Notes: generated by a model not told the origin, from the sequence alone. A DNA stretch of 64,000 bases from Nemertoderma westbladi (GCA_032718475.1 JAUCBJ010007542.1:51096-115095), one strand, 5' to 3'; positions 5,708-48,249 are shown, counted from the stretch's first letter. Program-made: numbers and translations.

Positions 5708-6753
5708 TGTTCGCGCTTTTAGACCTTTTAGCAGATAACCTGCCAATTTAAATGTCCCTTTAATTATAAATCGACTTTTGCCCTTACCTATTACATGGTG
5801 TACTGAATTTACATCCGCCGAAGCCAGTCCGTGCGCGGCGTATGACCCATGGATTAGGGTTCCCTAGAAAGTTATTGCGGTTTAGGCTGCTTTGTATTAT
5901 TCGATTGATCGCTACTATATAATCTCCGACAACTATATTTACTTTCGAGGAAATATTAGCAGTTCCTTTGGGACGTGGCGCTTTAAGTATAAAACAGAGT
6001 TATGACTTACACTAATCACAACTAGATGGCTATAGAATCTCGTAAATAGCGCATTCTTTAGGAAATGCTTTATTAACCCTCACACTACTTCACACTAATT
6101 CACACTAATTTGCCGATCGTCACTGATTTTGATCATATATAAGGAGGATTGCAACTGACACATGTAGGGATTATGAAACAGCATTTAATTCACACAAAAA
6201 CCACTATAATTTGAGTCGCAGTTGCTACCAGTAGACCCTTCTGCTTACCTCAGTAATTAAAAAAGTTGAGGGGTTTACGATTATTTATCGGTATTCTCCA
6301 AATATAACATCCATTAATATAAACAGCAATTAACAACAATATAAACAGCATTAAGACAGTGCGGTGAACAGAGTCAGTATGTGTTGATGTGATGCGGTTT
6401 GTGCCGATGATAATAGATTTACGTTCTTATAACTCTAGCCATCAGATGTTCTTTGGGCAAAGTCTGAAACGTCTGGACTTAGGGCTGAATCCAGAATGGA
6501 ATAGGATTCTCAGAAAAACTGCCGCATTACACCATTTTCTATAGGGCTCTATTGGCATAACAGGGAAGGTTGCTCTGATTGGCTAAAAATATGTCCAAAC
6601 AAAGAAACCTCCACATACACAAAGAATCAGCTGACAGATTTTGTCATCTCAGTTTATTTTCTGACAGAAGCGTAGCTGAACAATTCTCGGCCTTTTTAGA
6701 GTATTCAGCGCATTGTGTAAAAATAATTTGTTATGTCCGCAAAAGCTTTTACA
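5708..6753 (-). mobile_element. ~1.05 kb LTR (TGTAAAAG...GAACA), inferred 3' LTR of a BEL/Pao element
   Basis: TG...CA ends on the minus strand, CCAAT boxes (plus-strand ATTGG at ~6551 and 6578) and minus-strand AATAAA at 6069-6074. The U5 end 5707-5763 matches 36481-36537 at 54/57. The U3 start matches ~48170-48231. Confidence 0.7.
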
Positions 6754-6830
6754 CTGCTCCCAGAAAATGGGATTCAAGTCTATAAAATATAAAAATCACA
6801 GTTTCTAATATATAAAAATACTCTAAACTA

Positions 6831-9800
6831 TCAGTCCTTCTTTCGCAAACGGCGTTTACGAAGTTTTTTAAGACTAGTGAGAGTCTTTTTCTCTTTGGGG
6901 CGAGCCACTTTACTAGGAGGGCTATAACTCCTGGGGGAAGGGTGCAATACAATTGCATCAGAAGGTTTTGGATTACGGTCGTTGTATCCGCCGGTCAAGG
7001 TACCCGGTTGATCGATGTCGACATCGGTGGATCGAGGGCGAACAACCTTTAGAGCTCGTTTCAGGATGGCAGCTCTTACTGATCCTTGATGGGTTGTTTG
7101 CACGACAGCGGTAGGTTGACCGTGTGTAGTGAAAAATTTCCTCGGTTTGATTGTTCTCTCTAATTCGCGTTCTCTGGCTTTATATTCATATGGTCGTCTA
7201 TGAACTTCTTGTAACTCAGGATGCGAGTTTATGAACAAGTCACCATATTCAGGATCTTGGCGGATAAAGTTGATCAAGTTGTAGGAATCCGGGTTATTGG
7301 GATTGATATTCCTCAGATATTTGCGAACATATTTGGCTGAAATGTTCTCGCCAACACGTTTCATCAGTTTGTAACTGGGGGTGCGAGATTTTTGTTCAAT
7401 GGAGGAAAAGAGGTATGGGTGAAACGCATAAACTCCTTCATATGCACGTCTTGGATAGTATTGGTGACGTGATTCGCAATGGAGATCCGCATTAGCTTCC
7501 CAAGATCTGATGTAACGCAAGGTAACTATTTTGTCTATGCTTTCTAGATCTCGATTGAAAGGGCAATCGAAACTTGCATGTCCTTTGAATTGACAGTGGT
7601 GACATTGAGTCATAAATTGAGGGCAAACTGCGAAAATATGTAAATTGTTGAGTCTACAATAAGCACAATCAAGCAAGCAAACAGTCGGCCGAAGCCGGAG
7701 GCGACCCGAAGGCTCCTCTTTTGATAGCTGCTACCCGAGGGTAGGGGTGGGCGCTACTCCTATCCCAAGATTTGCTCCCAGTTATTTAACTGGTTCTCAT
7801 TTTATCGACCCCAGTGGATGAAAGGCTGAGTGGACCCTGGCGGGGCTGAACCTACAACCATTAGATTGCAGGCCCGGCGCTCAACCAACTGAGCTACCCC
7901 GCCTTTTAATATATATATATATTAGCACAATAAATCTCCATAATAGGTTGGTCTTTAAAGTAGGAGCAGGGTTTGCTGTAGTCCATTGGGGTAAAGTGAT
8001 CCCGTGATGCACATAATCGGCAACGTTTCCTAGAAATGTAATTGGCATGTCGATAATCATATGCCGTGAGACATTGTGGACCTTGATACCATTCCAACAC
8101 ATAATCATTATTGCTACTCCTGGACACTGCAGGTTGAATTTCTTCAGATTCCAAGCAAATTGGTTCTTCTTCAACTTGCATAGCTGCGATAGATGTAGCT
8201 GTTTTCTCAAGGGAACCCACTGTTTGAACTTCCACGATAGAATAACCCGTGGGGATTCGGGGTCTTTGTATGACAGATGAATGTAGATTCTGTATACAAA
8301 CGTCCTTAAAAATGGCAAATCCAGCGCTGTCCAACTTCTCAGCAGCGGAATCTATCAGGCTGAGTTTGGTCAAAGCACGGTCTTTAAACTGACTGTCAAT
8401 GTTACGGAACGGAGTCAGAAAGCGCCTGAAGCATTTGAATCGGATGAATTTATTGTGTTCATCTAACTTAGCGAGTTTAGTTCCAAGCACTAAGGGATGA
8501 GTGCTTATAGTTCGACTGCACACATCGGCTAGCCAACCGGCAAGTGCGGCGTTCTCGAAGATGGTATATATAGCTAATGAGGGACGGAGTGGAACACTCA
8601 TAAAGCTATAAACGACTCCAGGTGCTGTTAATGGTCCGTCAAAATATAATCGAGAATAATGGTCGCCATATATTTGTTGATAACTGACAGGATTTCCAAC
8701 TTTAAAATTCCATCCGTATTCTTGGAAGGCAAGATGTCCGATAGAGGTTCTTTGTACTTTATTGATTCCGGTCAGTGTATTGGCATACATAGTTCGGAAG
8801 AAACTTCGGCCTTCTGCCCATGGTGCTATCAGTTGGGTATCTACGAAAGGATATGGGATATTCTCCATATTTCTAAAGTCATTATGGAGATCTCCATAAA
8901 GTGCTGAACCGATTTTAATTATTCTCTCAACAAACAGCATCTCGAGGACTGGCTGGGGTAGCATAGATCCATCTATACCCATGGCCGGTTTGCACTCGGT
9001 ATCGGTAACATAATGCTGCGCGAGTTCGAATTGTCCATGTCGGAGTTTCTTTTGTATCTCTGTGAGAGTCTCAAAAGAATAATCGATCACGTCGGAACAT
9101 GCTCGAGTAAAAACATGGGTAGAACCAGCTAATCCTCGTATGTGTATCATTCGCGTAGTTCCTAGTTCTCCAAGAGTAACACTAACTTCCTTATCGTAAG
9201 TAACAACTCCGTACATTTCGATAACCTTAAGACTTTCGTTCCACTCTTTGGTGGTGTTTTATATGGTCATACCCACCGGATGCCATAATGTCGCGCATTC
9301 GCTGGCGTTAGGTAAATCGCTATACTTCAAATAATGTGTAGTATGTGTAGCTTCATCTCCGTATCGCTGTATTCTTTCTTCTTCAAATAATACATCGAGA
9401 TTCCAATGGACTAATCGAGTTTTAATGAATCCATCGAGATTATACGGAGGTATTACGTCCTTTTCTATTCTTGAAACATTATAAGGTTTTCTGAATGAGT
9501 TTACTTCAACCAATTGATCTAAATGTTTTTGTAGTTGTTCAAGTTCGACAAGATCGAGGGGATTTATCAATGGTAGAAACTTTAAACTATGTGTAGGATC
9601 TTCTGGTTTCGCCATATAATATTGAGTTAAATGGACATAATAGGGGTGATCTTTGATGCCGTAAAATGAGTTTGGTAAAGGTCTAGCGCGTAGGTTAACC
9701 TCGTGTACCATACGACGGACAAGATCCGCTCGATTGTCCGGAGGTTCAACGAGTATACCGTCGACACGTGCAGCCTCGATTGGCGGACGTTGTAACATAG

Positions 9801-11573
9801 GAGCGTCAGCGATAAGATCTCTAGATCTTAAGTTAATATCAACCAGTTGAGGTTGTGCTGTCGCAAAGAGTTTATCTCCGAAATGGGGAACCATCGAAGG
9901 ATGAATGATGCTTTTGGAATAGAGATCAGTCATAAGTATTTGAGCTTCTGGTTGAGCTAAAGCCGCTTCTTCTCTCTCATCCATTTCGATATGCTTCTCC
10001 TCGATCTGATTCTCCTCCACTTGTCGTTGAAAGCGTTCGTCTAAGAACTCTTGTAGAGAGTATGTACGTCCAAGTTCGATATCTTCCTCAAGATTCTCGA
10101 ACTGGGGTAAAGCTAATTCTTTTACCGCTTGGACTTGTTGTTGCAATTTACGTTTGTCTAAACAATAGTAGGTTCCATTTCCGATCTTTTGTCGAATCGC
10201 GTCTAATGCGTTTCGTATAACACTTTCCTCCACCTCGGTGACAGGTAGTATCGGAGTTAAACTGGTACGATTATACGGGTTGAACGGAGATATTAGATGT
10301 CCGCATCCCAATCTGGCTAGGTAGGATGGGCGAATATCTAGAGAGCCCACAAGTGGAGTGCCACTGACTATTTGTTTGGGTAACACTAGGTCTTTGAACA
10401 ATGAGTACAACTTAGGAGGATCCATCATACTATTAGGATCGAGAGTCTGAGGTCGCACCAGGGAATGAGGAGGTCGACCGAGTATTCTGGAACTCTGATC
10501 ATAGGTTTACTTAAGGATTGTTTGAGTCGAGCGAGCGTAGGTGGTACGTCGAACAAGTTTTGCTCAAAACTCCCGTAAGTATAGCGAGTAAAACTGTGTT
10601 TAGCGCAACGTCTCTGCAGATATTTATGTCTTTCCGTTTGTTGATTGGGTCTAGGGCATTCATCGCAGTAATACCAAAGACGCACGTCTTGTAAGGGAAA
10701 CGCTGGTGATCTTTCTCCAGTTTTACAATATTCCTCCATCTGTTCGAAGCTATCCGGTACAACAGGTAGCGGTCGATCGGCGGTAAGATACATCATAGTA
10801 AAATAGAGTCGTTTAAGTTGCATCATAGGGTTATGATGTATACCTTGAGGATATCGAGTTTCTAGATTTTGTGGACTAGCTACATTGAGATAAGTTTCTC
10901 TCAAGAATTTTAAATATTTGTTAAAGTCACCATGTTTGTCCGGTTCTTCAACATCTTATCTTTCGAGTCGGTTTCGAATATCATTTTCATGTTCAATTCT
11001 CAGTTTATCATTCCGAATTCGCTGGGCATGATATTTAAATAGAATCATTTCCTTTTCGGTGTCTACATCGTCAGTATCGTGTAAATCAATAGGATGACCA
11101 GTAGTTAAGAAGTCCATATACGTACCATTACGATGCGTATAGCGAGCGGTGAATTTTCTATAGTCCAATTCATGCTTAAGCTGTTCCTTTGACATTGGCG
11201 GTTCGATATAACAGCCATCGTCTTCCATCGTGTGTTGACTCGCGTCACCGCTTATCAAACTATCAACAAACGCTTGCAGTGGTAGGGTATATCGCTCTCT
11301 GATACCAAGATCATCTTCTATCAACTCAGTCATAGCTGCTATGAGTTTATCGATATTATAGCTATTAAGGCTAGCGGGCATCGCTGCCTTCCCCTCTTTT
11401 GCCCCGGACAGCCCTGAGATCTTCAGCGCTGATGTACTGTTGTCGTCGCTGTGCCCCTCGCCAACGTAGTAGCCACACAACGAAAACAATAACCAGCGCG
11501 AGTCACTCCACTGTCCATCCCAAGGGCTCGAATACACTGGAGGTACTTGATACTGATGTAGGGTAACTTTCAC
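6831..11573 (-). pseudogene. Disrupted ~1,490-codon accessory ORF: unknown N-terminal region + DnaQ/DEDDy-like 3'-5' exonuclease + 3 CCHC-type zinc knuckles + basic tail
   Basis: In-frame TAA at 10956-10958 and 9259-9261 with open codons continuing, a frameshift near 10460, and a SINE at 7670-7923. Motifs: ExoI VVTYDKE; ExoII LEMLFVERIIKIGSALYGD...FVDTQ; ExoIII-like PL..SLAIYTIFEN. Knuckles: CRLC..H..C, CAYC..H..C, CHHC..GH..C. Confidence 0.8.
7670..7923 (-). mobile_element. tRNA-derived SINE with 8-bp TSD (AGCACAAT at 7662-7669 and 7924-7931)
   Basis: Head GGCGGGGTAGCTCAGTTGG...GGTTCAGCCC (A/B boxes), central CCACTCAGCCTTTCATCC...GGTCGATAAAATGAG domain of the kind seen in metazoan SINEs, and (TTGC)n tail. 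Confidence 0.9.
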
Positions 11574-11911
11574 AATTACGACTCGCTACTGTAAACACAC
11601 TTTAGTAGTAACATTCACCTATAAATACACAAATTCCACATTCCTGCCACAATTTGTACAAATTAGAGCCATTTGTCCATTAGTCAGATGCCTTCCAGAA
11701 CGCCACATTATTATTATGTATCCTTAGATACTATCAAGGTGTTATTTATTACGCATGCTATTCAATGGGGTAAGCTTTCTATTGTTCTTTTAAATCACTT
11801 CTAATTCTAGCATGGTTGATACTATGGTGACATTATGCAAAGCTAGCGGTAGAATTAGGGTATTTCTCATTAAAAACAGATCTGGGATGCTATTTAATAG
11901 TGACTCTTTAA

Positions 11912-12105
11912 CCCTATTAAACCCGGGGGGGGGGGGGTCAATATGACCCCCCCCCCCCCCCCGTGGTTTTTTTATTATAATTCTGAAATAAACGCAGTTG
12001 GGAATCTGAAATTTTATCACTTTTCCTAAAAATCTATTGTCTTCATGGTAGTGAAAACCGTTTTCAAAAATATTGGGTACTTTTCGAGTTATAGCACCAT
12101 TTATG
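11912..12105 (+). mobile_element. piggyBac-type MITE, left end
   Basis: TTAA|CCCTATTAAACCCGGGG...GTCAATATGACCCC, the same start as the complete copy at 57064. Confidence 0.85.
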
Positions 12106-12680
12106 ATTTCCTGCAACCCATGATATTGCTTTTGCGCCGCTGTGCTTTGCAAAATCTCCCACGCAGTGGTGCGAATAGTTTAATATATAATAGGATAAAG
12201 TGTCTCGTCTTGCGAGACATTTAATTATAATTACTAAAGTAAATTATCTATATTTGCAAAGGGTGAGGGTTTAACAGACCCAGCGCAGAATTAACACGGT
12301 TAATAAGGCGACCCCACCCAAGCAAAAGCAATACCAATCAATATGGCAGTGCAACGGCATCCAGCTTTTGGTATCACTATTTTGTGTGATACATGATACA
12401 ATGTGAAATAAATTCGAGGGCTTTGCACAAGTTAAGTTTATACGTACCGGTACTGTAGTGGATAATTTGTTAATTACGTTCTGCTCCTTTGTTCAATAAA
12501 GTCTACAAATATTTCTAAAACGGAAATATTTACTCATGCAAACTACCATTATTAAAAAGAATGCGAACAAAGTATAATGCATTAATAAATGAACCTTCAT
12601 TTTCAAGTATAAAATCGTAAACACAGAGATATAATATGTATCGTATATAGAATATGCAAATTGAGCAATGAAAGTTTGAT

Positions 12681-13561
12681 TTATATAGATGCTGGTCGAA
12701 TATATTTCAGAAATGCATTTGAAGACCAGCGCCCTTTTGCTCTGATTTGGGCATCAGATAAACCTTCACGTGCTGCCTCAGTGGCCGCCCCTATCCGGAA
12801 GCTATGTGATTTGTAAACATTCGGAGATAAGTTAAGAAAATTGAAAACTTTGTTCATAATTGCAATGAACTGGGGGCGGTAGGCAAGCCGGAGGCCCAAA
12901 TAAAAAATTGGCTGTGCTTGCTATTAGAAGGGCGTAATTTAATATATTCATAAACAGAAGAAATTGCAAGTTCTGATTCGTTTTTGTTTATGTGGACACG
13001 TACTGGGGTATATGGTGGTTTTTGGTATTTATGGCGTCTAATTGTGATCGTAACATGATTAAGGGCCCATTCAACATTGCTAATGCTCAAAATCCATTTC
13101 CTCGGTATACCTGGTTTTGGAGTAAATTCTCCAACACGTAGGAAACCATAAAAAGCTACTAAAAACATACATTTAATGACGTATTGTGCATAAATATCTT
13201 GATAAATAACTTGAACAGCGTTTAACATGCGGTTTAGGATTGCTTTCGTAATTGGTAAATGGGAATCTCCAACCATGTTATTTTTACCCAATCCAATCAG
13301 TGCCCTCGTAACCAAGAACGCCTTCGTTGGGTCAGCAATATTCAATAACCGATGTGGGAGAGCTATCGCAGACATGTGGTTAGAAATTGTGGATCTTGAC
13401 AATTTCTGAGAGTCTAAATACGCAATGAAACATCCCAAAACAGTTGGGTCAAGTGGTAACACGAATGGGATGTTTAGAACATCTGCGACAAAACAGCGTA
13501 ATTTCTCCCATATTCGAGTATACGAATTAAGAGTTGCTTCTTCCCATGAATGCTCGATCAT
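12681..13561 (-). pseudogene. Tyrosine recombinase of the DIRS/Ngaro element (frameshift near 12890)
   Basis: FYGFLRVGE (R), SHSFRIGAAT (HxxR), GRWSS and KYIR (Y) catalytic set. Confidence 0.92.
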
Positions 13562-13657
13562 CTGTGTGTATCGAAGAATGAGTTCTGAGGTAGCATATGA
13601 TGAGGAATTGCTGATGGATACTTGTTGGCGGTTGGAGTGATGTCCATAAACGATTAT

Positions 13658-15277
13658 TTATACCTGCAAACGAGAAAGAAGTTCTGAACGAACATTCATG
13701 ACACCTGGTACATGATTTGAACGAAAAGGGATATTATGTTTCATTGTAAGAATAACAAGTTTGCGTATAAGAACCATAATTAAGGATTCTTTGGAAGATT
13801 TTTTATTAAGAATGGAGACAAGTCCTTCATTGTCTGTCCTAAATATTATTCGCTTTCCCTTTAATTCAATACCCCAGATATGTATAGCCATTACGATAGG
13901 ATAGAGCTCGAGGAGAGTAATATTTGTACACTCTTTCCACCTAGGAGGCCATTCTCCATAGAACCAATGATTACGAAAGATAGCAGCATATCCCTTCATT
14001 TTGGCTGCGTCAGTGTAAAGTTCCAATGTAGTATTGGAAGACCAATGTCGATTGAGGAACATTGTACATCCGTTATAGTGTAACAGGAAGTTCTCCCAAG
14101 CTATGAGATCTGCTCAAGCCCATGCCTTAAATCTGATTCGGTGATGCATACGTGTAGCAGTCACGGAAAGCTGTATTAAACGTCTAAGAAAGGCTCTACC
14201 GGGAATAACAACCTGACAAGCAAAGTTTAGAAACCCAACAATAGCGAGCAAATCTCGTTTTGTAACCCACTTATTGTGTTTCATACTCTTAATAAGGTCA
14301 AGACCCTTCTCTACTTTATGTTTCGGAAGCCTCTCAACCATTTCATTTGTATCTAACTCGATACCCAGAAAGGTAATGGTTTGGGATGGACCTTCGGTCT
14401 TATGAGAAACTAGAGGGATGTTCGCTTTACTACAGAAATCTATAAAGATGCTGAGCTGTCTTCTGCATTCACCCTTATATCTCGTTGCCATCAGAAAATC
14501 ATCTAGTATGTGTATTAAATTTGGTATTGAGAGCTTAGAACGACCTACCCATTGAATGGCACTCGAGAATCTTTCAAAGATTTTGCAACTTGAGCTAGCT
14601 CCCATTTCCAGGCATTTATCATAATACCATTTATTGTTCCATACTGAACACATTAGATGATAATCTAATTGCGATATAGGTATAAGTCTAAAGGCTGAAC
14701 ATATGTCAGTCTTTGCAAGATAACACCCTGAGCCTAATTCGATAATTATATTAATGGCATCTTCTACATGGTAGTATGTGCAGGTGGAGTCTTCATTTGA
14801 AATATTACTGTTCACTGAAAAGTCATTATATGGGGCAGAGAGATCGTGAATTAAACGAAATTCTGAAGGAGTCTTTTTTGGTCTCCCCGATAATGGGTTA
14901 ACATGGCAGACTAGGAAGGGCTGGTCATCGAATGGCCCAGCCATACGACCAGCTTTTATTTCGTTTTCAAGTTTTTGTGTGACAACATTGGGATTGTTTA
15001 TGGCAGACAATGAATTCCTGGTATACGTAGAAACATTAGGCCCATTATAATCTAAACGAAATCCATCAGTAAAACCAGAGTCTAGATAGGAGAAATCAGT
15101 AGGATTATAACCCGAGAGATAACTCTTTAGTACGTCCCATTTAATTGGTGTGGGGAGTTTGGAGGATTGGTCGACGGTTTGTACCACCTTGCGCATTATG
15201 GTACCTTCCCGTATTCCTGAATGCGGGCATTCTCCGATCCATTCCCCGTCTTTGATAGGGTGCACCTGCAGCTGCAC
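13658..15277 (-). pseudogene. DIRS/Ngaro reverse transcriptase + RNase H (frameshift near 14100)
   Basis: FRLIHDLS, KTDICSAFR, MGASSS, HILDDFL, FLGIELDT; RNase H motifs YTDAA, LLELYPI, TDNEG. Confidence 0.93.
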
Positions 15278-16662
15278 GTCCTCTATACGATGGACCGGAT
15301 CTTTGAAAGGGCCGTTTAGTAATTAGATCAGTAATTGGTTGGGTACACTTCATAAGACGGTGTGTCCCACCACAATTAGGACAAGTGTGATTATAATCAC
15401 AATATATACATTTATCTCCCTTATGGTAGGCATGGCAGTATCTGGTTGGAATGGACATACGACCAGTTTTTCTGGCAGTAGCTGCCATTGCGAGCTCCTG
15501 TATAGGGTTGCCCCAGTGGAACTTCGATGGGTTGTTCTGCTTACAACGCCAGAACTTCTTGTAATAGAGTAGCCATGATCCACCTTTATCCTTGATGTCT
15601 TTAAGGATTGCTGGATATTTCTTCAGCTTCCTACTTTCTTGTGGGAATTTGTCTTCATAAATAGCGGAGAAGATATTCCAAGCAAGTAGCCATTGTTCGA
15701 ATGAGGTTATTTCATTAACACCATTATCTTCCTCGAAATGGCTGTTGACTTGGGTGCTCAGTGGCAGATGTTAAGATAGGAAATCGTCGTTTTGATTTTA
15801 CCACTACTGGGTCACTCAACAATGATGCGAGATCTATAAATTTATGATTCCAGATCTTCTCCTTTATATCTAAAGGGACATATGCATCTACCTCTACAAA
15901 AGAGCTACACTCACCTGCTAAGGATGTCGACAATGACTGCTCAGCTGCAGGGAAAGTATCTGGCACCTGCGAAATGTTGGATGTTGACACTGCAGGACAT
16001 GCAGGTAGAGTAAGGGTTGTTGGTACTGGTACACCGACTGGTGCCGTAAGTGTAGGAGGAGTAATAACTGAAGCAGCATGAATTGGTGGTGAGGTGTGAT
16101 GAGTAGAAGCTGGTGTTAGACCTAACCCGGACATGTTAGATGGAGGTGCTAGCCCAGAGACTGGGTGTCCAGGTGGAATGGCTCCAGGAAAAACAGGTGG
16201 CATACCCATCCAGTAAGGGTTTATGATTGGGGTATGACCACTTTGGCCCTTTATTATAGGAAGGGATAGGAAGGAAGGGATCTAGGGGACATTGTTACTA
16301 TCACTTTGGCCCTGACTGAATGTATTGGGGTTGGGGAAGGATTGCGGATAATAAAATGGCATGTATGGGTTCCACTGAGGAAAGCTCTGCTGTATTTGTG
16401 GATTAGCAGTAAATTCTGTAGTGGTAGATGGCAAAGGAGCTGTTGGGCCGCCACCGAGTATATGGGCATTGGAAGAAGTGGAGGGTGGGGTTGGCATGGA
16501 ATCACCATCACCAATGTTTATTAGAGACGGGCGATGTGTTGTCCGTGGTGTACTTTTAGAACGCGTTTGGATCACCTTGCTGGAGGTTATAGCAGTTTTC
16601 CGTGCCTTTGACTTTAATCTTGTAGCCATAGAGGTAGACTTCTTCTTTGATGATTGAGACAT
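15141..16662 (-). pseudogene. Ngaro-type gag (fragmented) with C-terminal Cys/His finger
   Basis: S/T/P-rich N-terminus, IKEKIWNHKFIDLASLL, and CHAYHKGDKCIYCDYNHTCPNCGGTHRLMKC overlapping the RT start. Confidence 0.8.
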
Positions 16663-16850
16663 GTTACTGGTTGCTGGTGAGTGTGAGAGATTGTGTATGC
16701 ACAGTTATAGAACTGTGTACCGGTACTGGTATATATATTCCAGCATATGATATGATCATAATACAGTAATAATCTGATTGACATATAGTCCAATAAGCAA
16801 AAACATCAACTATAGAATTACGACATAGCTAGGCCTATATAACATGGGCA

Positions 16851-18533: not shown

Positions 18534-18545
18534 TAGTAGTAGTAG
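16875..18545 (+). mobile_element. 5'-truncated RTE-clade LINE with 12-bp TSD TATAAGCAGAGT (16863-16874 and 18546-18557) and (TAG)n tail
   Basis: TSD and tail are directly visible; RT ORF is open. Confidence 0.92.
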
Positions 18546-20675: not shown

Positions 20676-20733
20676 TTTTTTGAGACGTTTTTTGAAAATT
20701 AAATTTCATTAAATATGAATTGTAACATCTCTA
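20676..20733 (+). mobile_element. Internal fragment of the piggyBac-type MITE fused to Gypsy gag
   Basis: TTTTGAGACG...GTAACATCTCTAT matches ~57123-57180. Confidence 0.8.
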
Positions 20734-24400: not shown

Positions 24401-24661
24401 ACAATAGACTGCAATGGTAAAGCTGTAAACGTATCTATAGACCAGTTAAAAACTGCATACACTGACACTGGTTGCGCAAGCATGACAACACAACGAGCAT
24501 CACCAACAACAATGCGCACTTCTACAACACAAGCGATGGGATCACCTCCTCTTGTTGACTACTCATTGGAACCAGAACCCGACCCCATGTCGTACATACC
24601 CCCCATGTGCCGAACCAGAAGTGGAAGATTAAGTAAACCTCCAACACGTTTGATCTTGTAA
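21380..24661 (+). CDS. Gypsy pol (protease-RT-RNaseH-integrase), uninterrupted; expressed by -1 frameshift
   Basis: FLVDCGA protease, [35 protein letters not shown] RNase H, HHCC, and DLVG/SDRG/ERFH integrase. Confidence 0.96.
21443..21488 (+). promoter_or_regulatory. -1 ribosomal frameshift signal (G GGA AAC + stem-loop)
   Basis: Slippery heptamer at 21443-21449 in the gag frame; TGCCGACG/CGTCGGCA stem about 5 nt downstream; pol is in the -1 frame. Confidence 0.85.
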
Positions 24662-24724
24662 CTCGACTCACTGTTAATTCTCAACTAGAACACATCAATG
24701 ATCATAAACTTTCGTGCCCTCACT

Positions 24725-24887
24725 GGGGGGGGAGTGATGTAGCGTCCACTCGATGGCATACCTATCGTTCGGACACTTAACTCGTTTCCTTGAGTATTAC
24801 GTATTCTAGAACATATAAAACACAACAATGTTTAACAATAATAAAATAGCTCACTAGTACGTTAGTTATTTATATGTGGCATTTACA
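24725..24887 (+). mobile_element. Gypsy PPT (24725-24737) and 150-bp 3' LTR (24738-24887, TGTA...TACA)
   Basis: GGGGGGGGAGTGA|TGTAGCG, TATAAAA at ~24814, AATAAA at ~24840, ends TTTACA. The 5' LTR is absent. Confidence 0.75.
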
Positions 24888-26101
24888 TCCCCCACAATTC
24901 CAGAACAGGTCTGGGGACGCTGATGCTTGATTCCAGAATTTTTGTCTTTTAAGGGTATCGGTAAGTACTACGTTATCTTAATCGACTAAAATTGTAGAGG
25001 ATCTAAGGGTTTAACAGATTTGTCAGCATTTTATTATAATAATGGTGTAAAATTTTAACAGATTTTTCTCAGGTCAACAACCTAAATGTTTGTTGGATTA
25101 GGGAGGTAGTCGTGGGAAGAGTCTCTTGTTTTCCATAGTTCCGGACAACTCTCGGTCTCTTTCCAATAAACATAAATGACCAACCGGGCGATTAAGTTGT
25201 TGAGTTTCGAACACAATTCCAGGTTTCTTGAAGTTACGTCGCATGACGACAAGTTCCACCGATTTCACTAAACCATCATCGGATATATGAGTCTCGATGA
25301 TACGAACTGTCTGCCACCTCTTACAGGGAAGATCTGATTCCACGATAAGGACCATGTCTCCGGCAATGACGTTTTCTTGCTGTGCAAACCACGCTGTTCG
25401 AAGTTGTAGCGTAGGAAGATAATGTTTTTCGAAATGGTCAGCAAAACAACGGGATAATAACTGCATAAGTTGCCAAGTTTGTCGGCAGTACTCGTCTCCG
25501 TCTGTTATTTCCGACTGCGGGAGCATGGCTACAGGTTTCTTTAGTAGGAAATGCGCGGGTGTTAGCGCTTCTAGGGAGTCGGGACTCGGTGAGACTGGCA
25601 TAAGCGGTCTCTCGTTGAGATAGGCGGTATTTCCTCCATTAACGTCCGCAAAAGTTCGTCGGTGAGATACGCCCGGCAAGGCACTATAAAGTGAAATGTG
25701 GTCTTCACGCTACATATGAGTCTCTCCTAACTTCCTCCCCACCAAGGGGCGTCGGCGGCATTGAAGGTCCAGCTAGATGCGGTTACTCTTAGCTGATCGT
25801 CCACCTGTCTTTGGTTCCAATCATTTACGTACGCTTTAATCTCGTTGTTGGTGACAATGAAATTAGTACCTTTGTCAGATTTCATAGTGTTGCTAGTCCC
25901 AAAATGAGCGATTTGTCGGCGTAAACTCAATATGAAGCTGTTGGTAGATAGATCGTTCACCATATCAAGATTGATCGCTGTACAAGTCATATAAACAAAG
26001 ATGACGCACCATTGCTTGACTATAGTCCTAGCATGATATACTTCATTAGGGCCAAATAAATCCACACCAGTGGTTCATAACAGCTGACTCTTTCCCTAGG
26101 T

Positions 26102-29100
26102 GGGATAAATATTTCTCCATTTGACGCAACACCGCCGCGGCCGCTATGAGGGAGGTGAATACCGCGGCCGCTCCTAAAGCCGCAGGCCATCGCTAACTAT
26201 ATAGGTTAACTTGGGATTCTGGGGGACTTTTCGATGAAGGAACTGACCAAATTTTTTTATTTTCTCACCAGGGGAGCGGTTCGGAATTCTAAGATATTAG
26301 CAACTCTAACATTATTAAATCTAACCCTTCGACGGACACGGCGGACAAAAAACCGTCATTTTTTCGACAATTTTAACATTTTTTTGAAAGGCGCTCTACA
26401 GTGGCTCGAAAAAACCCTAGGTTATTGCTTAGCCGACGCCGGGATACGATAGAGGGGATTAATTAGTGAATTCGTTTCTTTTTTCAAAAAAGATTACCAC
26501 GCCTTTTTTCCGAAAATGTCCGTCAAAGTTGAAAAAACGGACAAAATGACTTTGCGGGATCCGCTATAACTCGGCTAATATTAATCGTACGGGGACGAAA
26601 GTAACGCGGTTGGAAAGGGGAAGAGTGGTACTACCTTCGTATCGAATGGGGGTAAGATATTTATTAAAATTTCGGGTGGAAAAAGGGGCTGTAAATTTGT
26701 ACGTTTTTGTCCGTCTTTTTTGGAAAACTTATTTCCGAAATGTTTAATTCGACAACGCGGGTAGGAATCCACTAATTCTTTTATGAAACTCGTAGAAGAC
26801 CATTGGGGCTACGTTCCTATCGAATGGGGGTACAAAAAATATGTCGGCAATAGGGGCCAAAGAGGGCCAGAATTTGTAAAGTAGTTTTTATCGAATAATT
26901 TTTTATTTTTAACTTTAGTTGGTTAAGGTACATTCTATACAGTCAATATCCATACGGGGAATTCAAATATGCTATCGGTTTTGCTCCAAGGATGATATTA
27001 AAAAAATGAGGGCCAAAATTATAATTTCGCGCTTCAAACTTGCTTCGCGGGAAATCGTCTAGCTCGAAAACTACTTAACTTACGGGAGATTTGTTTACAC
27101 AGACTTATAGTGCGTTAAATTATCTATCTAACAGCGTTAATCACAGCGCCGGAGGTATTATAAAACTTGAGCAGCAGGCGATCGTGTGAAATATAATATT
27201 TATAAAAAGGGACGAAAAATTTTTTTTTTAACAAATCGCTATTCCATTATAATTTAGCGTATTGCGCCAAAAGTACCTGTAAAAAGTGTCAAATTAACTC
27301 CGCTATCTTTTATCTTAACATATATAATTAAAATTACGAATTTTAAGGGTCGAAAAATATCGCGTTATTTTGGCCCTTTTTTTTAATTTTTTTGGGGCCA
27401 AAAATAACCCCTTCTCAAAAGATTAAGACAAAAATTACGGCAAAGAATATACCAATTTTATTGAATTTGGACCACCAGAACCGAAGTTAGAGCGATTTTA
27501 GTGAAAAAATAAAAATAATTTTTTTTGCAAAAAAATTAAGAATGGTCAGGTCAATATTGGATTTCGAACCCGCGAACTTAGGTTTCACTAACGTGATTGA
27601 TAACCACTAGACTATGTGACCAAGAGAATTTGAAATTTTCGAGTGACTATTTTTAAACATAAATAACTTCGGTTCTACAGGGCCGTTTAATCTGAAACTT
27701 TTTTCATTGGATAGAGGATAGATTGTAGTGTGTGAAATAGGATAAAACTTGGGAAAAGACTTATGTGCACTTAGTGCAAAATGCACTTAAATAGTGAACA
27801 TTTTTTCGATATTTCAAACACTATTATTTCCAGTTCTATTCATCGTAGAATGTTATTTTTTGGATTAAAATGTAGTTTGGAATGATTTCTAACTATAATC
27901 GTAACATTTGTTATCTTTTTATGTCTATAAAGTGACTTAAAATGTCCATGAATATGGTCCAAAATCGCAAATCCAGATTTATTAAATTCGATTTTTGACA
28001 CTTTTAGCTACTGACACTTGATCATACACCATCGTAGATCGGTAGAGGATAAACATAAGTTTGTTAAATAAGAGCCACCATTACGATCTGCTAAAGTGCA
28101 TTTGTACAAATAAGTGTGCAAAAGTGCAAATTTTTTAATAAGGTCAAATTATATAGTATTGGGTTATTTTCTTTGCAGATACTTTATTTTCATATTAATA
28201 TGTTGTTTGAACCTTACTGAGCGCATTAGGGGATATGCGTACAAATAACCGACCCTTATGAGGCTTCGATTGGGTAAATTAATAAAACATAAGGTTGTAT
28301 AGTATAATATTCTAAAAACCAGTGTGATATTAAATGCACTTTAAATAATAAATAGAAATCAAATAACAATTGGACTACACAATTAAAAACTCGCACAATT
28401 TTGTACTTATTATATCGCTTCAAATTAATTCAACAGTGGATATTTGGGGGAAGGGGGAAGTTACAGTGTGCATTCGGGGGAAGTTTGGTGAACTGCATTT
28501 ATGCAGTGAATCCAAACTTCCCCCTTTGATATATATATCATATACTTAAGACATGCTAGGGTGACGGGGAAATATTTGTTACTGTCACACTTTGCTTCCA
28601 TTTATCCTATCCTTTATTATTACCCCAGTCAGATAAGAGATAATAAATCAGTAAAAACTAAACTAAACTGTCTTTCATGCAAACAAATTTCTAACTAAAG
28701 ACGGGTGAATGACCATGACCATGGAAATAATTTTAAATATAATTGTATATCAACTATTTGGGGAGGCTTCCAAGTTAAACCCGAAAACAATTATTTTGTT
28801 ACATAGTAAATAACGTTGTATGTTCTTCTTCCTCTCATAATAAAATATAAATGAAATATCTCAGATCGCTATGCCCTGTAACATTTCACAACCAAAATAT
28901 TTAAGTGTGAAAAGTGTAGGCCTACCACACTCCGCCCAAACAACCGCAAACGCATAGCCAACAAATTTAACAAAAGGTTACATACATGTTGGGTTCATGA
29001 CGAGATGAGTGAAAATTGATCGCGTAATATAAAGTAAAAAATTAAGAGACGGGCTGGCTCTCCTCCACTTTCTTACCCAATGGATATGTTGTTGTAATAA

Positions 29101-29116
29101 TCTAATATTGGGGCGG
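26102..29116. mobile_element. Unclassified ~3 kb non-coding insertion in the BEL1 integrase
   Basis: BEL sequence is contiguous across it by comparison with BEL2 at ~38767. Flanked by CTTTCCCTAGGT / CTTTCTCTCGGT (10/12). Confidence 0.7.
27559..27621 (-). other. tRNA-like Pol III promoter segment (not a functional tRNA)
   Basis: TAGTCTAGTGG A box and GGTTCGAAATCC B-like box; no closing acceptor stem. Confidence 0.55.
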
Positions 29117-32100
29117 CTTTCTCTCGGTAATTCTGCCTCTCGCTGTGTTAAAGGCCTACTAAATGTTTTCCTACAGGGTATACAGTTCCTATTATATACT
29201 ATACAGTCCCAGTATTGGTTTAGAGCTCTATGGGGCTTATGGAAATAATAGCGAGATCGAATTTCGCTAAGAACTCGTTCTCTACCAGCGCGGTAAAGCT
29301 TACTGTGAACATCTACAATCATCTTGATTTGTATTCAAGATTTCTAATGAGTATGGGAAACTTAGTGTCAAAGGACATTGGAGCATTGGCTAATCTCCCT
29401 CCGACACGTATTAGCCCATCTATCATTGTGCTAGAGAAAGGATCCCTTAAGCCATCTGTGGATTTCTCAACAACAGGAAATACTTTTCGGAATTCTCGTA
29501 ACATTGCAGGAGTCTCAGTATCTGCTTGTTGGCATCATCATGTTCTTGGTAACTGATCTTCTCAGTCAGAAAACTATCAGGCAGCCGATAAGTGGGAAGG
29601 TCTTTGGTAGCATGGACCTTTTCAGCTACTACTGAAGTGGCATCATTAGCGATCTTCGCCCTGGAATAGTGATGATGGAAACATCGTTTTAATTACACAA
29701 TGGCCTTGCAAAGCCGATTCCAGGAGCTATAATGAGCCAACACTCTTTGGATGAGAGGAGAGAGTCCTTGTGAGACGTCTGGTGTTCCAGATTTCCAATC
29801 TATTTCCCTTATTTCTATGACGGATTTATTTATGGTTCGAGTAACATCCATGGATGGATTTGGATCCACAGTGGCATCAACGGCGGTGTGTAGCACAGAC
29901 AGATCTATCGCTGGCTTAAACAGCTTTGATTTACTCGTCCAGGTTTTCGGTTTGACTTGCCGCTCCCTTGGCTTGTCTGATCTCCGCCGTGGTGAGATGA
30001 GGGGGCCATTCCTCCTCTTCTTTACCTATGAAGTCGGGGCCACCTAAACAGTCTTGAGGAGTTGCTCCTCTGGAAGCGATGTCGGCTGGATTAATCGTCC
30101 CAGGGCAATGTCTCCATTGATCTATATTAGTGCGACGGAGTATAATAGCTACTCTGTTGGTAACAAAGATGCTGAACTGACAGACTTCATTAGTTATATA
30201 TTCCAGAATGAGTAATGCATCAGTCCAATAGACAGTTTTCTCTAGTGGATAGTAGATCTGTTCCGTTACATTCTGGCCGATGGCTGTGGCGTATAGCGCC
30301 GCTTTTAACTCCGCTCTGGGAACCCGCAGTTTGTTGTTTATTAGAGCCTTGGAGGCGGCTAATGAAACTTTAATTCCATCGGGAGTTTCAACCCTCAGGT
30401 AGGCTACTATACCTATTCCAATATTGCTGGCATCTCCAAAAACATGGAGTTGATAGGAATACGTGGGGAGAATGTGACCGAAATACGAGCGGGAAATCTT
30501 AAAGTTCTCGATAGATGGTAAAGAATCCTCCCACTTCATCCACTTCTTTCGCAGTTCTCCCTGGAGTGGATCATCCCATGAGTGGTTTTCGAGCCACATT
30601 TGTTGTACCAAGCTCCGAGCAACTAGGATTACAGGGCTAATGAATCCCAATGGATCAAAGTAAGTGCTCAGAATACTCAGGCAAATCCGTTTAGTTTGAA
30701 CGGGATTATCACGTTGTTTCAGTTGGAAAAATAAAATGTCTCTCTCTTTGTCCCATTTCAGTCCAAGGGTCTTGGTTTCTGGAAGATCGTACTTATGAGG
30801 TCAAGATCTTTAACACCTTGGTCTTCTACTGGGATCGATTCCAGGAACTCACGGGAGTTACTAGTGAATTTGGTTAGGCGAAATCCACCTTGTTGTAAGC
30901 ACTCTACCGTTCCCTTGGCAACATCGATTGCTTCTTCCACCGATGGGAGGGACTTTAGATTTTCATCCATATAAATATCCCGTTTGATGTTGTCGGTAAC
31001 CGCTTTAGAGAAGGCATCTCTATTATCGTCGGCAGTGGTGCGCACTACCGAACAAGCGTTCGAGGGGCTTGATATGATCACAAAGGCCTGGATTGTCATC
31101 CAGTACTGCATCGGTTTTCGGTTGAGGTCTCCTTCAGGCCACCACAGAAATCATAGGCTATCTCGATCCCTAGCTAATGCTTTAACTTGTAGTAACATGC
31201 CTTCAATGTCGGAGGCGAAGGCGATTGAATATTGCCGCAGTCGTAATAATATTCCAAACAAAGATTGGAGTAAGTTGGGTCCTGGCAACAGTTCTGACTT
31301 TAGTGATTGTCCCATATAAAAGGAGGAGCCATCAAACACTACCCAGACTTCGTTTTGTTTACCGGGCTTGGGAACATAATGGTGTGTCAAGTAATACATT
31401 CTTTCCATTATGGGTGTTTCTTTCGGAACTCGCTACGCATATCCCTTGTCAATGAATTTCTTTAGTTGCGTCTTATACATCTCTTTGACTCGATCGTTAG
31501 ACGTTAAGCGCTGATGTAGCTGTGCGATTCTCTTTACTGCTAAAGGTTGGTTATTAACGAAGCTGGGTTCTCTCCGCCTAAAAGGCAGACCAATCTCATA
31601 GAGACCCTCCTCCTTAAGATAACTAGTAGTCGTTTCTTGAATTTGCATAGCTATCTCTTCTTCAACGGATAACGCTTTGTCATAGGAATTAGGCTCTACA
31701 GCTTCTTGAGTAAAGAATCGTACCGCGTGTTCATAGCGTATCTTATCATTATATCGCTCTACCACCTCATTGAGTTCGTCGTCGTAAGTCAATAGTCCGT
31801 TGTTTTGACAGATGATATTACAAAAATTAACTTGGTTTGACCAAGTTTGATTCTCAGTGAGCAGTTCAATGGTATTCTCCTCGTCATATAGAGTCTGGAT
31901 GTCGTCGTTGTCTGAGGAGCATAGAGTTTCCACAGCTTGGATATCCTCTTCACTCACGGCTTTCTCACACTCAATTACCTGGTAGACTTGCTCTCCCTTC
32001 GATCTTTCCTGCAAAGTCCTGTGGGAAGGTCCCGTGAAATACCAACCTACTCTCGTTCTTCCCGCGTAGGTTTGTAGTGGTCGCGGATGAGCAGGCTGTT

Positions 32101-34722
32101 TCTCTAGGGTCTCAAGCACTTCGTGCGCATTCTGGCCGAGCAGTATCTGTACCCCTGGGTAATGTGTTCTGAATCTAGGTATGTTGTATTGCTGGGTAAA
32201 ATGGTCTTCATTCCAGTTGTAAGGCTCTACTTGGCTAGTAGCAAAGTTCTTTATTGCCACCATTTTAACTGACCTTATACTGTTCTCACCTAGTTCATCT
32301 TAGGGAGTGGACAACGATCCAACATAAAAGTCTGTGGATACCGTAGATTTCCAAACCTGCATAATCACGGAAAGGTTCAGTTTGGTTCGGAACCTTGGTT
32401 GACCAGCAAAGATATCTTCGGCCAGGTCCTTGTCAATGAAGGTACCTGAACTACCGGAGTCAAGGAGGGCATTCACTATTAAGCTCTTCGCATGTCCATG
32501 TACTCTTAGATGCACCACTGGGAACTCTCGGATGCCGACAGATGGTGTTGAAACTTTCCATGAAAGCTGTCGATCCGGAATAGATAGTTGGTGTTCTTCT
32601 CCCTCTGTTTCTGTCTCATATGTAATGGCTCGATATACGGTTGTGTTGATCATATAACAAGATTCATTTTCGTCAGAAAATTCATCTGTATAGAATCCTT
32701 CCATCTCCGAACTATGGTCAGTGTCGTTCACATCACTGAATTGTACACGTAGTTTGGGCTCACTTACCGGTACCTTATCAAACTCAGTGTGTAGTATGAT
32801 ATGATGTTTCGCTCCACACTTAGCACACCTCATGTCTGAGTAACAGGTTTTCCTTTGATGTCCTCGCCTGAGGCAATTATAACACAACCTTTTGTCCCAT
32901 ATGACATCACGTCTGTCCTTTAGTTCTTTCCTCAAGAATTCCTCACGCCCACTCAAGCGATGTGGCCCATCGCACAATACACACTTAGGTTTGATGTTAC
33001 TCACCTTAACTTGCATTGTATTTTGTTTGCTAGGTCTTTCTTCGGGCTTCCTACCATGAATTCTTTTGGGAGAAGTAGGGGGAGTTGTTATCTGTCTCTC
33101 TTGCCACTGGTTCGAGCCTTAGATTTACTTACGTCTTTTTTGACTTTATTTGTGTAATAAGATCTTTCGGTGTCTCTGCCACTATTTTCGTCATAAGACA
33201 TTTGAATTTCATAATCATCCATATAACACAATGGTATTACCTATCTCCTAGTAACGGGTTTTTCACTTACCTTGGTTTCAGGAGTCTTCTCTCTAGACTG
33301 TTTTATGAGCTGTAGTCTTACCTCTCCGTTTAAGAACGACATAAGGTCAGCCATGGTTGGATCCCTATGTTGTTGGTCCATCAAATAGAGAACCTTTTTG
33401 TCCCAGCGAGTACCTACTCCGCCCTTTGGCAAAGTTGATGCTACGGCTCCTACAACCATAGAACTCTGGTATTCATGAGACTTGCCCAACCAGTCTAACT
33501 GTCTACAGATCTCCTGAATCTCATCAGAAAACTCTATAATCCCGCTGCTAAGAAACTTTCTGGGCGCTACTAATTTCGCATACAGATAGTCCTATTATTT
33601 ATTTATTTATTTTATATATTTATTTTATTTATTTAGTCCTATTCTATTAATTAGTCCTATTACCACACCTGATGTTAAGTGTATCCCAAACTTGTCTCAA
33701 TCCATCCGGATGTCCAATAAACTTTAATGCCATTAACTTGGGAGGTCCTTCAAAGCACTCGATGAGGAATCGTAATTTCTCTCCGCTGGATAATACGGAG
33801 TTTTGTATGTTATCTTTGTAATATTCATTACAAGGTAACCATTTCAACTCATCTCCATTAAACTTGACGACCTCTCCCACCTTTACCGCTTGACGGGCTT
33901 CCGTTCTAGCCATCTGACGTGTGAAGCTTTCTTGAGCCATCGTACTAATTAATATCAAATTATCGGTATATAAATTTCTCAGATTATTATCAGATCGGAA
34001 TGGATATCATTATCAACAGGCTTATTAATACTCTTAATAGGGTTTACTATAGGAGTTTCTACTTCACTAGCAGTATAGATGCGTGTAGGCTCCACACCTT
34101 GCGCATAAAATACCTCAGACCTAATGGGCTGACACATTGTTACAGAGGGTGATGGTATACCCATTTGTATATTTACTAATTTATTGCGTTCGAGAGCGAT
34201 ATGTTGCTGTACTTCTTGCAGCTCTAATTTAATCTCTCTTACTGTTCCCTTTAACAAGTGAACAGTCCCTTCCAAGTTCCTTCCAAGGGATTTGCTAACA
34301 GGCCCAATTATTTCTGGCTCATCTACTATAGTAGGGAGTCTTTCTACTCTTATAACTGGGGCTGTTCACTCTCTATTCCTTAAGTCTACATTAGCTAATT
34401 CCCTTCTCACCGTAGGGGGTAAGTTAGACAACTTATGTCTTTGGGGCGCTCTTATACGTCCGTTTGAACGAGATTTATTACCATTACACTCAGAAACAGT
34501 AGTAGTACCTTCGGCCGAGGAAGTAAATCTGAGAGTAGATCGACTTAGAAGTTGCATTTGAATCACTGCCCTTTGTTTATTTAAGTAATCTTGTGTCGCC
34601 TGAATACTCTCTAACTCTAATTGGGCTCTTGCTTCATTTGCCCTCCTTTCAGCTTCCACTGTGGCAGCTTTAAGTGTGGCAGCTAGGAGACTATCTGACA
34701 TTGTTTGTTTTGTGTCAGACAT

Positions 34723-36481
34723 AATTTATTTACAGTTGAATGCCTATCATGATGATCACAGTTAAAGTAAATCTAGGGGAAATCAGTATCAACTGTCAGT
34801 CTCATAGTTACCAATATTGTTACTCAATGTAACGTGGTATATATCTAGTATTAGAATACCGGTATACACCTATAGTATATATAACAGTATTACTACTGAC
34901 TAGGATCAGCCACAGAATACCGGTATATAAGTTTAGCCTAAGTTATATAAATATATAATAAGCTTACTATAAACACCGATAATGTCAATAATTTAATAAT
35001 AACTGATTATCCAAATTTTTAGGAATTATTTCCCTTTACTTTATGACTGATATTAAGCAGTAGGTTCAACTGATATTAAGACCTAATTGATGTATAACAG
35101 GCCTATTAATTTATAAATCTGATTGAGTTGATTTATAAATATATATATATATATATACCCGTGATGGGTTTGTCAATATTTGAAATAAATGTTATTATTT
35201 CTGACTAAGAAGTCACTACACAGAGGCTGGATGCTCTCAGTGGAGTGCTACTTGTTAGACACTAAACACTGATAATTCTACTTAACTAAGTTACTTATCA
35301 CTACAAATTACTTACGTATCAGGTTGAGATTACACAATCTCTAAATACATACGTAAGTTACACGTACAATTTTTTAGGGTAATTTAACAAGAATTTTACG
35401 AACCAGACTAACAAGACTAACAGTTAGAATTTCTGGTTCTTAAGACTGACAGAAAATTACGGTATTTTGAAACCAATAAAGTAGTATTCAGTACGTTGTG
35501 TTGTCCAGATATTTAAATGCCACCGTCTGATGGCTTATAGTCTACACTATAAGCACTACGTACCCGGAGTGTCCTATACCTAGAGATTAATTATCGAAGC
35601 CAACTATAGCTAACGGACCTATTAACCACGTTATAACACAAATAAACTGCCTATGCACTAAATTAACTTTCAGGAAAGCACTGTACTCTAAACCCTAAAT
35701 TAGGTACTAACACTTATACAACATATAACTTGCAGTTAAATATACGTGAACAGCCAAAAGAACCATAGTATCTGCTGGAGTGACCGGAGCACTAAATCAC
35801 CAGTCTGTCCTATGCCAAGGAGTCCTGAAGTAGTACCGGGGTTAATTTAACTATAACAGTATGCATAATAAGCATAATTATTGTAAGGAATTAACTTGGG
35901 GACATGAAGGTTGCAAATTACTTGCATAAACTCTGAATATTACGCTACCCGTACAGACTATTCAAATAAAACACAGACCAAATGCTAGCAGACTACCTTC
36001 AAGCCTAAATAAACTACAGTATATGCAATCTCTGAAATGGTTAGTTAGTAAGCGTTCTAGACTACGTAGTACGACTTATTCCTTCGTGGAGGGTTTACCT
36101 TATAGCACTGGATGCCTCCACTCTCCTAACTAGCACTTTATCGGAGAGACACCCTACATACACTGTAATCGCCTCAGACCTAACAACAAACAGACAACAA
36201 TCCGGCCTACAAGTTATTTTTACAATCTGAGCAGGCTTACACGCCTTCTGCTCAATATTACACTTACCGATAAATAAAACTGACAGTAATGAGTAAACCA
36301 TACAAGGAGTAAGGGGTGATCAATCCCTAATCCCCGAGCAGCCCACAATATACAATATTTCACAATCAAATAATACTGGGTAAAGTACCGTTTCGAGTTA
36401 ACTAGGCCTACAATCTACCGTCCGACCGGTACGTTTCGGTTTTATGGCCTACTGAGCAATAAAAGAAACTTAATCTATTAA
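34723..36481 (-). other. Long 5' leader of BEL1, homologous to 45666-46530 of BEL2
   Basis: Shared blocks such as AATCAGTATCAACTGTCAGTCT (34781 / 45724) and ATGCCAC.GTCTGA.GGCTTATAGTCTACACT (~35517 / ~46494). Confidence 0.75.
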
Positions 36482-36537
36482 TGTTCATGCTTTTAGACCT
36501 TTTAGCAGTTAACCTGCCAATTTAAATGTCCCTTTAA
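36482..36537 (-). mobile_element. U5 remnant of the BEL1 5' LTR
   Basis: 54/57 match between 36481-36537 and 5707-5763; cut off at TTAA by another insertion. Confidence 0.7.
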
Positions 36538-36785: not shown

Positions 36786-36819
36786 AGGCGAGGGCAGCGA
36801 GTCAGCGAGTCAGAACCAG

Positions 36820-48231: not shown

Positions 48232-48249
48232 GTGAGGCCACGAGGATCG

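Follow-up and report, generated by a model that had tools for sequence, protein, structure and literature searches.

A candidate RNase D-like third gene in a high-copy BEL/Pao retrotransposon family of Nemertoderma westbladi

Could a BEL/Pao retrotransposon carry a nuclease-like gene in the position where an envelope gene would be expected? The question is raised by a 64,000-nucleotide stretch of the Nemertoderma westbladi genome (GCA_032718475.1, JAUCBJ010007542.1:51096-115095; the whole stretch is referred to as the window), in which a decayed gag-pol (BEL1) and a long open reading frame (ORF) that ends beside a long terminal repeat (LTR) lie in the same orientation, separated by other transposable elements. 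An earlier note on this DNA had joined them into one giant minus-strand element with an exonuclease/zinc-knuckle gene in the env position. We find that the gag-pol part belongs to BEL/Pao (Belpaoviridae), that the ORF and LTR are highly repeated, and that the ORF product has homology to RNase D and carries CCHC-like zinc knuckles. The order of the whole would be LTR - leader - gag-pol - spacer - ORF - LTR, and the surviving parts together with a second LTR come to 15,567 bp, in keeping with the proposed length of at least 15 kb. The parts, all on the minus strand, are listed here from the 5′ end.

36482-36537, minus: remaining tail of the BEL1 5′ LTR (56 bp left)
34726-36481, minus: BEL1 5′ leader, 1.75 kb, the first 19 nt being the primer-binding position; over 844 nt it shares 68% identity with the leader of BEL2
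25098-34725, minus: decayed gag-pol of BEL1, interrupted by a 3-kb insertion (~26101-29117) (PF05380 E 7e-37, DUF5641 E 8e-18; 72-78% identical to BEL2)
24888-25097, minus: BEL1 sequence past the pol stop, without an LTR start (score at shuffle level, 58/300)
11382-11911, minus: repeat-family sequence of high depth 5′ of the ORF, read as the surviving 3′ part of the spacer, up to a TTAA insertion site
10428-11381, minus: N-terminal ORF piece from the first ATG, with a stop at 10956-10958 and a frameshift into the next piece; no known domain
7924-10506, minus: middle ORF piece (stop at 9259-9261), with ~415 aa without known relatives, the exonuclease-like domain, a linker and the first CCHC-like knuckle
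8431-9120, minus: RNase D-like (DEDDy) 3′-5′ exonuclease domain, from alignments; Exo I Asp kept and Glu replaced by Ser, Exo II Asp kept, Exo III Y-x3-E
7662-7923, minus: AT run and tRNA-derived insertion resembling a short interspersed nuclear element (SINE), splitting the second knuckle (limits approximate; Rfam tRNA at 7838-7903, E 0.043, under the gathering score)
6831-7661, minus: C-terminal ORF piece, with the remainder of knuckle 2, knuckle 3, a basic tail and the stop (P0003 knuckles E 1e-5 pairwise; zf-CCHC_3 E 0.014, weak)
6754-6761, minus: short purine-rich tract directly abutting the LTR, from the sequence
5708-6753, minus: 3′ LTR, TGT...ACA, 1,046 bp, with its tail matching 36482-36537

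The LTRs, gag-pol and the repeat status of the ORF

On the minus strand, the LTR beside the ORF starts with TGTAAAAG at 6753 and has ...ACA as its last bases, at 5708; the ORF (stop codon 6831-6833) ends 77 nt short of it, as the earlier note had observed. Seven of the eight nucleotides abutting 6753 are purines, a short tract corresponding to the BEL/Pao polypurine tract (~10 nt). The far end of the LTR recurs at the other end of the proposed element, also as claimed, with 5707-5763 and 36481-36537 agreeing at 54 of 57 positions (94.7%, E 4e-18; 0/300 shuffles), in the same orientation and immediately upstream of the BEL1 leader. The pair comprises a whole 3′ LTR, with TG...CA ends and a length within the 0.2-1.2 kb range, and the 56 bp of 5′ LTR, 94.7% identical over the 57 positions. 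A further claim, that both ends resemble the LTR-like segment upstream of BEL2, stands for the start, which aligns with 48173-48234 (72.6% over 62 nt, E 1e-5; 0/300 shuffles), but not for the end, whose match near 47050 is at chance level and was reached in 33/300 shuffles. The 5-bp flanks of 5708-6753 differ; it is therefore no solo LTR bounded by a target-site duplication.

The BEL1 pol domains follow the BEL/Pao order of protease, reverse transcriptase, RNase H and integrase, with an aspartic protease motif at 32303-33118 and reverse transcriptase motifs at 30800-31450 (both by inspection), PF05380 at 29934-30800, a weak integrase zinc finger at 29119-29334, and DUF5641 at 25101-25709. A gag is also present, with DUF1759 at E 0.084 in BEL1 and at E 3e-8 in the 72% identical BEL2, and zf-CCHC_4 at E 0.008. 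The coding region is interrupted at many places, and an AT-rich, non-coding insertion of 3 kb lies within the integrase region (26101-29117). BEL2 itself (37743-48231) is a sister of BEL1, the two being 72-78% identical in gag-pol. Its LTR start, at 48231, is related, its leader contains a fragment of a long interspersed nuclear element (LINE), and its 3′ part is truncated at ~37640. Scored against shuffles, there is no LTR start in the 210 nt past the BEL1 pol stop or in the 171 nt past BEL2 pol, and both elements therefore extend beyond pol.

Repeat status was determined from four public DNA runs (X1-X4, all bearing the label of a single organism and drawn from no more than three samples), whose assembled contigs were aligned to the stretch with partial coverage; the summed contig depth is an order of magnitude and not a copy number. 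The LTR and ORF together reach 55,000-620,000 in X1-X3, compared with 84-386 for an Ngaro element and 171-942 for a Gypsy element, both nested between pol and the ORF, and across the four runs the ORF and LTR are 150- to 4,000-fold deeper than the Ngaro. The ORF is therefore a repeat; that it might be a single-copy host gene or a part of the Ngaro, as the earlier note had allowed, is excluded, since the depths differ by two to three orders of magnitude. A broader form of the same objection is that the ORF belongs to some other mobile element or a host gene and stands beside the LTR by chance. Position 6753 is bridged by no piece among those listed, and the protein, metagenome and viral searches described below gave no relative with a known context, both of which suit a chance neighbourhood. 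We nonetheless find it very improbable: depth rules out a single-copy host gene and the Ngaro, no duplication flanks the LTR, which is bordered by a purine tract, and the 77-nt spacer between ORF and LTR is itself high-copy, with an indel at 6790 in 27, 21, 13 and 1 contigs.

Depth is about equal in the exonuclease bins (8118-9451) and the bin at the integrase end (24793-25440), at 87k and 83k vs 94k in X1, 138k and 124k vs 156k in X2, 75k and 67k vs 76k in X3, and 810 and 408 vs 465 in X4. We consider it likely that the family has the layout gag-pol - ORF - LTR, because no LTR starts in the 171-210 nt after pol, the two regions are about equally deep, and their order and orientation match. 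The family also includes internally deleted derivatives (window 7179-10959), seen as joints from which 2.3-2.9 kb of the ORF, with the nuclease-like domain, are missing: 7244 to 9559 in four of four runs, 7179 to 9986 in two, and 8094 to 10959 in one. In X1-X3, the depth at the two ends of the ORF region exceeds that of the exonuclease bins 2- to 5-fold.

The interval between pol and the ORF

The intervening DNA was described earlier as mostly other transposable elements, and these indeed occupy 11912-24887, or 12,976 nt of the 13.5 kb between the ORF and the pol stop, as follows.

11912-12096, plus: left part of a piggyBac-like non-autonomous element, or miniature inverted-repeat transposable element (MITE); joint 12096 to 20649 in 4/4 runs, related copy at 57055-57181
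12097-20648, minus: low-copy Ngaro/DIRS-type element (reverse transcriptase, RNase H, tyrosine recombinase) inside the MITE, from Pfam and depth (~100-250 in X1-X3)
~16863-18545, plus: RTE-type LINE within the Ngaro; records of X2 and X3 bridge 16862 to 18546
20649-20734, plus: continuation of the MITE, truncated at 20734 (deletion point)
20735-24887, plus: Gypsy element without a 5′ LTR, with gag, pol and a 3′ LTR (~24736-24887); other copies extend at least 334 nt upstream of 20734

The MITE begins at the TTAA at 11908-11911, and from its TTAA-CCC end we take it to be piggyBac-like. The joint from 12096 to 20649 in all four runs indicates that the 8.55-kb Ngaro block was inserted in the MITE. 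The MITE right end and the Gypsy 5′ LTR are both missing at 20734/20735, and other copies of each extend further; a deletion therefore took the right end of the MITE, the 5′ end of the Gypsy and any BEL sequence that had stood between them. The nesting is thus not clean. Family sequence runs past 11911 in X2 with letters that are unlike the 210 nt after pol (by eye), so part of the spacer has been lost.

The proposal of one minus-strand element is thus upheld for the LTR and for the order, orientation and repeat status of the parts, but not for an uninterrupted junction of gag-pol with the ORF: 24888 and 11911 are joined by no contig among the joints listed for the four runs, and what were two distinct copies may have been brought together by the deletion at 20734/20735, which both count against a single insertion. 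An explanation built on these points is that the ORF comes from a non-autonomous relative, resembling a large retrotransposon derivative (LARD), with BEL1-type LTRs and no gag-pol, and that the deletion, of whatever size, brought its 3′ end beside an unrelated BEL1. The greater depth of the ORF ends and the internal deletions point to non-autonomous forms being common, and the LTR tails differ at 3 of 57 positions. However, no LTR follows pol immediately in either BEL1 or BEL2, the near-equal depth of the exonuclease and integrase-end regions holds in four of four runs, and orientation and order suit one element, and we regard a LARD-like origin as unlikely. That BEL1 and the ORF at this locus descend from one original insertion is somewhat favored, with less assurance than the layout of the family.

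Some further features of the window can be noted. The RTE-type LINE, which has an open frame of 566 aa, is absent from the X2 and X3 records and is thus a polymorphic or recent insertion; without it the Ngaro measures ~6.9 kb, including a non-coding 5′ stretch of 2.1 kb (18546-20648) that is contiguous in X2 and X3, and the Ngaro block is absent or nearly so in X4. The copy at 57055-57181 is an internally deleted version of the MITE split at 11912-12096 and 20649-20734. At 36800-37640, a LINE-type reverse transcriptase fragment precedes a 24-bp tandem repeat in a decayed state. Long inverted repeats mark two further elements, at 57267-61920 and 48250-52578, the arms of the first consisting of 163-bp tandem units. 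On the plus strand, 2253-4652 holds intron-split pieces of a host gene with a fibrinogen C-terminal domain (Pfam E 5.6e-12) behind a predicted membrane anchor (by inspection) and a Pro/Thr-rich stalk.

The RNase D-like domain, the zinc knuckles and a possible function

The ORF runs in the same sense as gag-pol from an ATG at 11381 to the stop at 6831, ~1,430 codons; its presence agrees with the earlier note, but the start given there (11573) and the size of ~1,500 aa do not, 11381 being the first ATG. Both it and gag-pol had been described as disrupted, and in the ORF we find stops at 10956-10958 and 9259-9261, a frameshift between 10506 and 10428, and the split by the SINE-like insertion at ~7662-7923. 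Fourteen of 33 substitutions are synonymous compared with 8.8 expected (P ~0.04; the 33 are in single-frame parts, of 40 variants listed among 1,725), which is weak evidence, from a selected subset of variants, for past coding constraint. The ORF lies in sense orientation at the env position; the top 19-residue hydropathy in its three pieces is 1.39, with no transmembrane segment, and they have no Pfam glycoprotein match.

A single protein (P0003) matches the 859-residue middle piece among 1.84 billion proteins (E 7.7e-4), with 29% identity over 162 aa and a pairwise E of 2e-12. The P0003 knuckles also match the C-terminal ORF piece, which was absent from the query (E 1e-5), and the order along the window is the same. 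P0003 has a weak PF01612 match (E 0.039) and three CCHC-like motifs, and the top Atlas match for both the ORF piece and P0003 is a cluster combining exonuclease and CCHC (0.79 and 0.86, as leads only). Run blind on 301 bacterial genomes, a two-row profile scored weakly at 43 places, spread over 42 genomes. Frames of 372-461 aa hold 37 of these places, and eight of the ten places in genomes also scanned with PF01612 fall within PF01612 matches. When the window domain alone was compared with a hidden Markov model (HMM) of 20 RNase D-size loci, it scored 8.6 bits (0/200 shuffles, maximum 1.8), with an hhalign E of 0.0016. Homology to PF01612 is indirect and under the Pfam cut-off, and the assignment of the exonuclease domain holds by homology rather than by Pfam or fold.

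The ORF piece has no relative among 3,569 longer-protein candidates or 44 metagenome contigs, and P0003 found itself alone among 7,989 (whole protein) and 792 (residues 40-250) candidates and nothing in 182 metagenome contigs. Viral contigs gave 0/47 with each of two alignments, and plasmids one chance-level match. P0003 is encoded on a 9,449-nt ENA contig and is a singleton cluster; its RNase D-like site looks complete, and it has three knuckles.

For the catalytic motifs we use the usual names (Exo I, II and III) and spacing, with positions read from the alignments. Aligned to P0003 and RNase D, the window copy keeps the aspartates of both Exo I and Exo II as well as D-T-Q, and has serine for the Exo I glutamate; Exo III, placed by inspection after an insertion of ~35 residues, is Y-x3-E as in P0003. 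The DEDDy catalytic set of four carboxylates and a tyrosine is therefore incomplete, with serine at Exo I and glutamate for aspartate at Exo III. An alternative placement, with Exo I at D-T-E (~9005-8997) and Exo III at 'PLTAPGVVY', was rejected because the alignments to P0003 and RNase D locate both elsewhere. Because the Exo I glutamate is missing, this copy probably encodes a pseudo-nuclease, and the third gene is predicted to have an RNase D fold with only putative enzymatic activity.

With the same layout, the family protein could instead be an active 3′-5′ RNA exonuclease, like Trypanosoma brucei RNase D (TbRND), that trims element RNA or host small RNAs, the serine being peculiar to this copy or subfamily. 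P0003 retains D-V-E, D and Y-x3-E, the window copy retains the Exo II and Exo III acids, and bdelloid rotifer ORF3 proteins are described as retaining the invariant residues (PMC5408684). An active enzyme might also shorten a primer derived from the element itself, as far as the duplex that it forms with the primer-binding site. The BEL1 primer-binding position (36463-36480) lacks an initial TGG, and 15 of the 18 nt that follow the 5′ LTR can pair with LTR positions 326-343 (window 6411-6428, minus; 0/500 shuffles). However, four lengths were tried, of which the shorter two were not significant, and 15/18 is equalled by 2 of 290 other leader 18-mers, so that this is a weak hint of tRNA-independent self-priming of BEL1. 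The serine moreover appears in the alignments to both P0003 and RNase D, and its codon is at least two positions from any acidic codon, unlike simple decay of a single copy. An active family enzyme seems to us improbable.

Several points weigh against an RNase D-like, non-cutting third gene. The exonuclease-CCHC protein of the earlier note is sustained in its homology to RNase D and in its knuckles, but not by a direct Pfam exonuclease match, as the window ORF pieces match no exonuclease in Pfam or PDB directly; searches of PDB sequences had no match to the nuclease part and elsewhere matched knuckles only, with 7c42 matched weakly via knuckles (E 2.3). With the RNase D HMM the hhalign probability is 6% and the alignment collapses at Exo III, and an HMM of 20 short stand-alone exonucleases (19 loci from the PF01612 list and one from the blind-profile list) gave no score for the window domain (27/200 shuffles). 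Two AlphaFold models are unusable (predicted local distance difference test scores of 34 and 28), ~650 N-terminal residues are without any relative, and the synonymous excess depends on the subset of variants described above. P0003 keeps D-x-E (D-V-E), so relatives may be active.

We give an even chance to the ORF being the third gene of a high-copy BEL/Pao family, encoding an RNA-binding RNase D-like protein with three knuckles that is likely non-cutting. Such a gene would be expressed from a separate RNA, either spliced or internally started, and its protein would function in the ribonucleoprotein of the element. By analogy to TbRND the zinc knuckles may grip single-stranded RNA, and by analogy to EXD1 and Maelstrom a non-catalytic nuclease-like pocket may cap or sequester RNA 3′ ends. 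Capping could shield element RNA from host 3′ decay, or it could disturb host small-RNA silencing. If the protein acts in trans, the internally deleted derivatives would be explained. A larger reading is conceivable but doubtful: a large and successful BEL/Pao lineage in which a 1,400-aa RNase D-like pseudo-nuclease with three zinc knuckles is carried in place of an envelope and acts in trans, in small-RNA counter-defence or in primer processing for tRNA-independent reverse transcription, with exonuclease capture convergent in gypsy, Penelope-like and BEL/Pao elements. The protein would on this doubtful reading belong to a little-sampled family of mobile-element proteins, with one distant relative in 1.84 billion.

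Comparison with known systems

Juno and Vesta, LTR retrotransposons of bdelloid rotifers, are of gypsy type. RNase D-like DEDDy ORF3 genes occur in both and in Athena/Terminon elements (Rodriguez et al. 2017, PMC5408684), and the statement of the earlier note on such genes is confirmed by that source; PMC6338049 and PMC6431247 cite the rotifer case only. Compared by description, the Nemertoderma ORF is like bdelloid ORF3 in being an RNase D-like gene at the env position with no transmembrane part, and function is putative there too. It is unlike ORF3 in its BEL/Pao carrier, its length of ~1,430 aa, its three C-terminal knuckles (the word CCHC is absent from PMC5408684), its long N-terminus without relatives, and the loss of one Exo I carboxylate.

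Belpaoviridae as described by the virus-taxonomy committee ICTV are 4.2-10 kb, with a tRNA-Arg/Gly primer site (PMC8742986), and a BEL/Pao survey puts the median at 7.4 kb, with 22.8 kb as the maximum by automatic detection (de la Chaux and Wagner 2011, PMC3118150). The present element is like these in having gag-pol with a Pao peptidase and DUF5641, an LTR of 0.2-1.2 kb, a purine tract and, as proposed, an optional third gene before the 3′ LTR. It is unlike them in its proposed length of at least 15.6 kb, which is above the ICTV range and twice the survey median but under the survey maximum, so that 'giant' is a relative term. The third genes described for BEL/Pao elements are env-like, for example the F-like gene of roo and the chuvirus-like gB (PMC13524379), and the earlier remark that extra ORFs in this superfamily are typically env-like agrees with this source and with PMC8742986. 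No BEL/Pao exonuclease third gene was found in the literature searched; Repbase, most subscription journals and the 7,861 elements of PMC3118150 were outside its scope and may hold one, and the term 'exonuclease' is absent from PMC3118150, PMC13524379 and PMC8556966. A BEL/Pao element with an RNase D-like gene where env would be would extend to another superfamily an arrangement that we found in print for rotifer elements alone. The rotifer families are low-copy, whereas the family here is very abundant and has deletion derivatives, so that selection on the gene, loss of its catalytic residue and its link to copy number could be measured directly.

In TbRND, zinc fingers supply RNA binding, and their deletion abolishes binding and most activity (PMC7797062). 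The Nemertoderma protein resembles it in having a DEDDy exonuclease domain followed by several CCHC fingers, and the first Atlas match is a mostly euglenozoan cluster built in this way. TbRND differs in being a cellular, active mitochondrial enzyme of ~350 aa, and no significant sequence match to its nuclease domain was found, so that convergence may account for the common layout.

EXD1 and Maelstrom are inactive DEDD derivatives in the biogenesis of PIWI-interacting RNAs (piRNAs) that retain RNA binding (PMC5408684), and an EXD1-like cluster is the second Atlas match for P0003 (0.77, as a lead only). If true, a nuclease-dead, RNA-binding version encoded by a retrotransposon would be a candidate suppressor of small-RNA defence. 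EXD1 and Maelstrom differ from it in being host genes. With a DEDD-type fold, lost catalytic residues and RNA binding, the fold and the binding being predictions for the Nemertoderma protein, they are the model for the explanation that we prefer.

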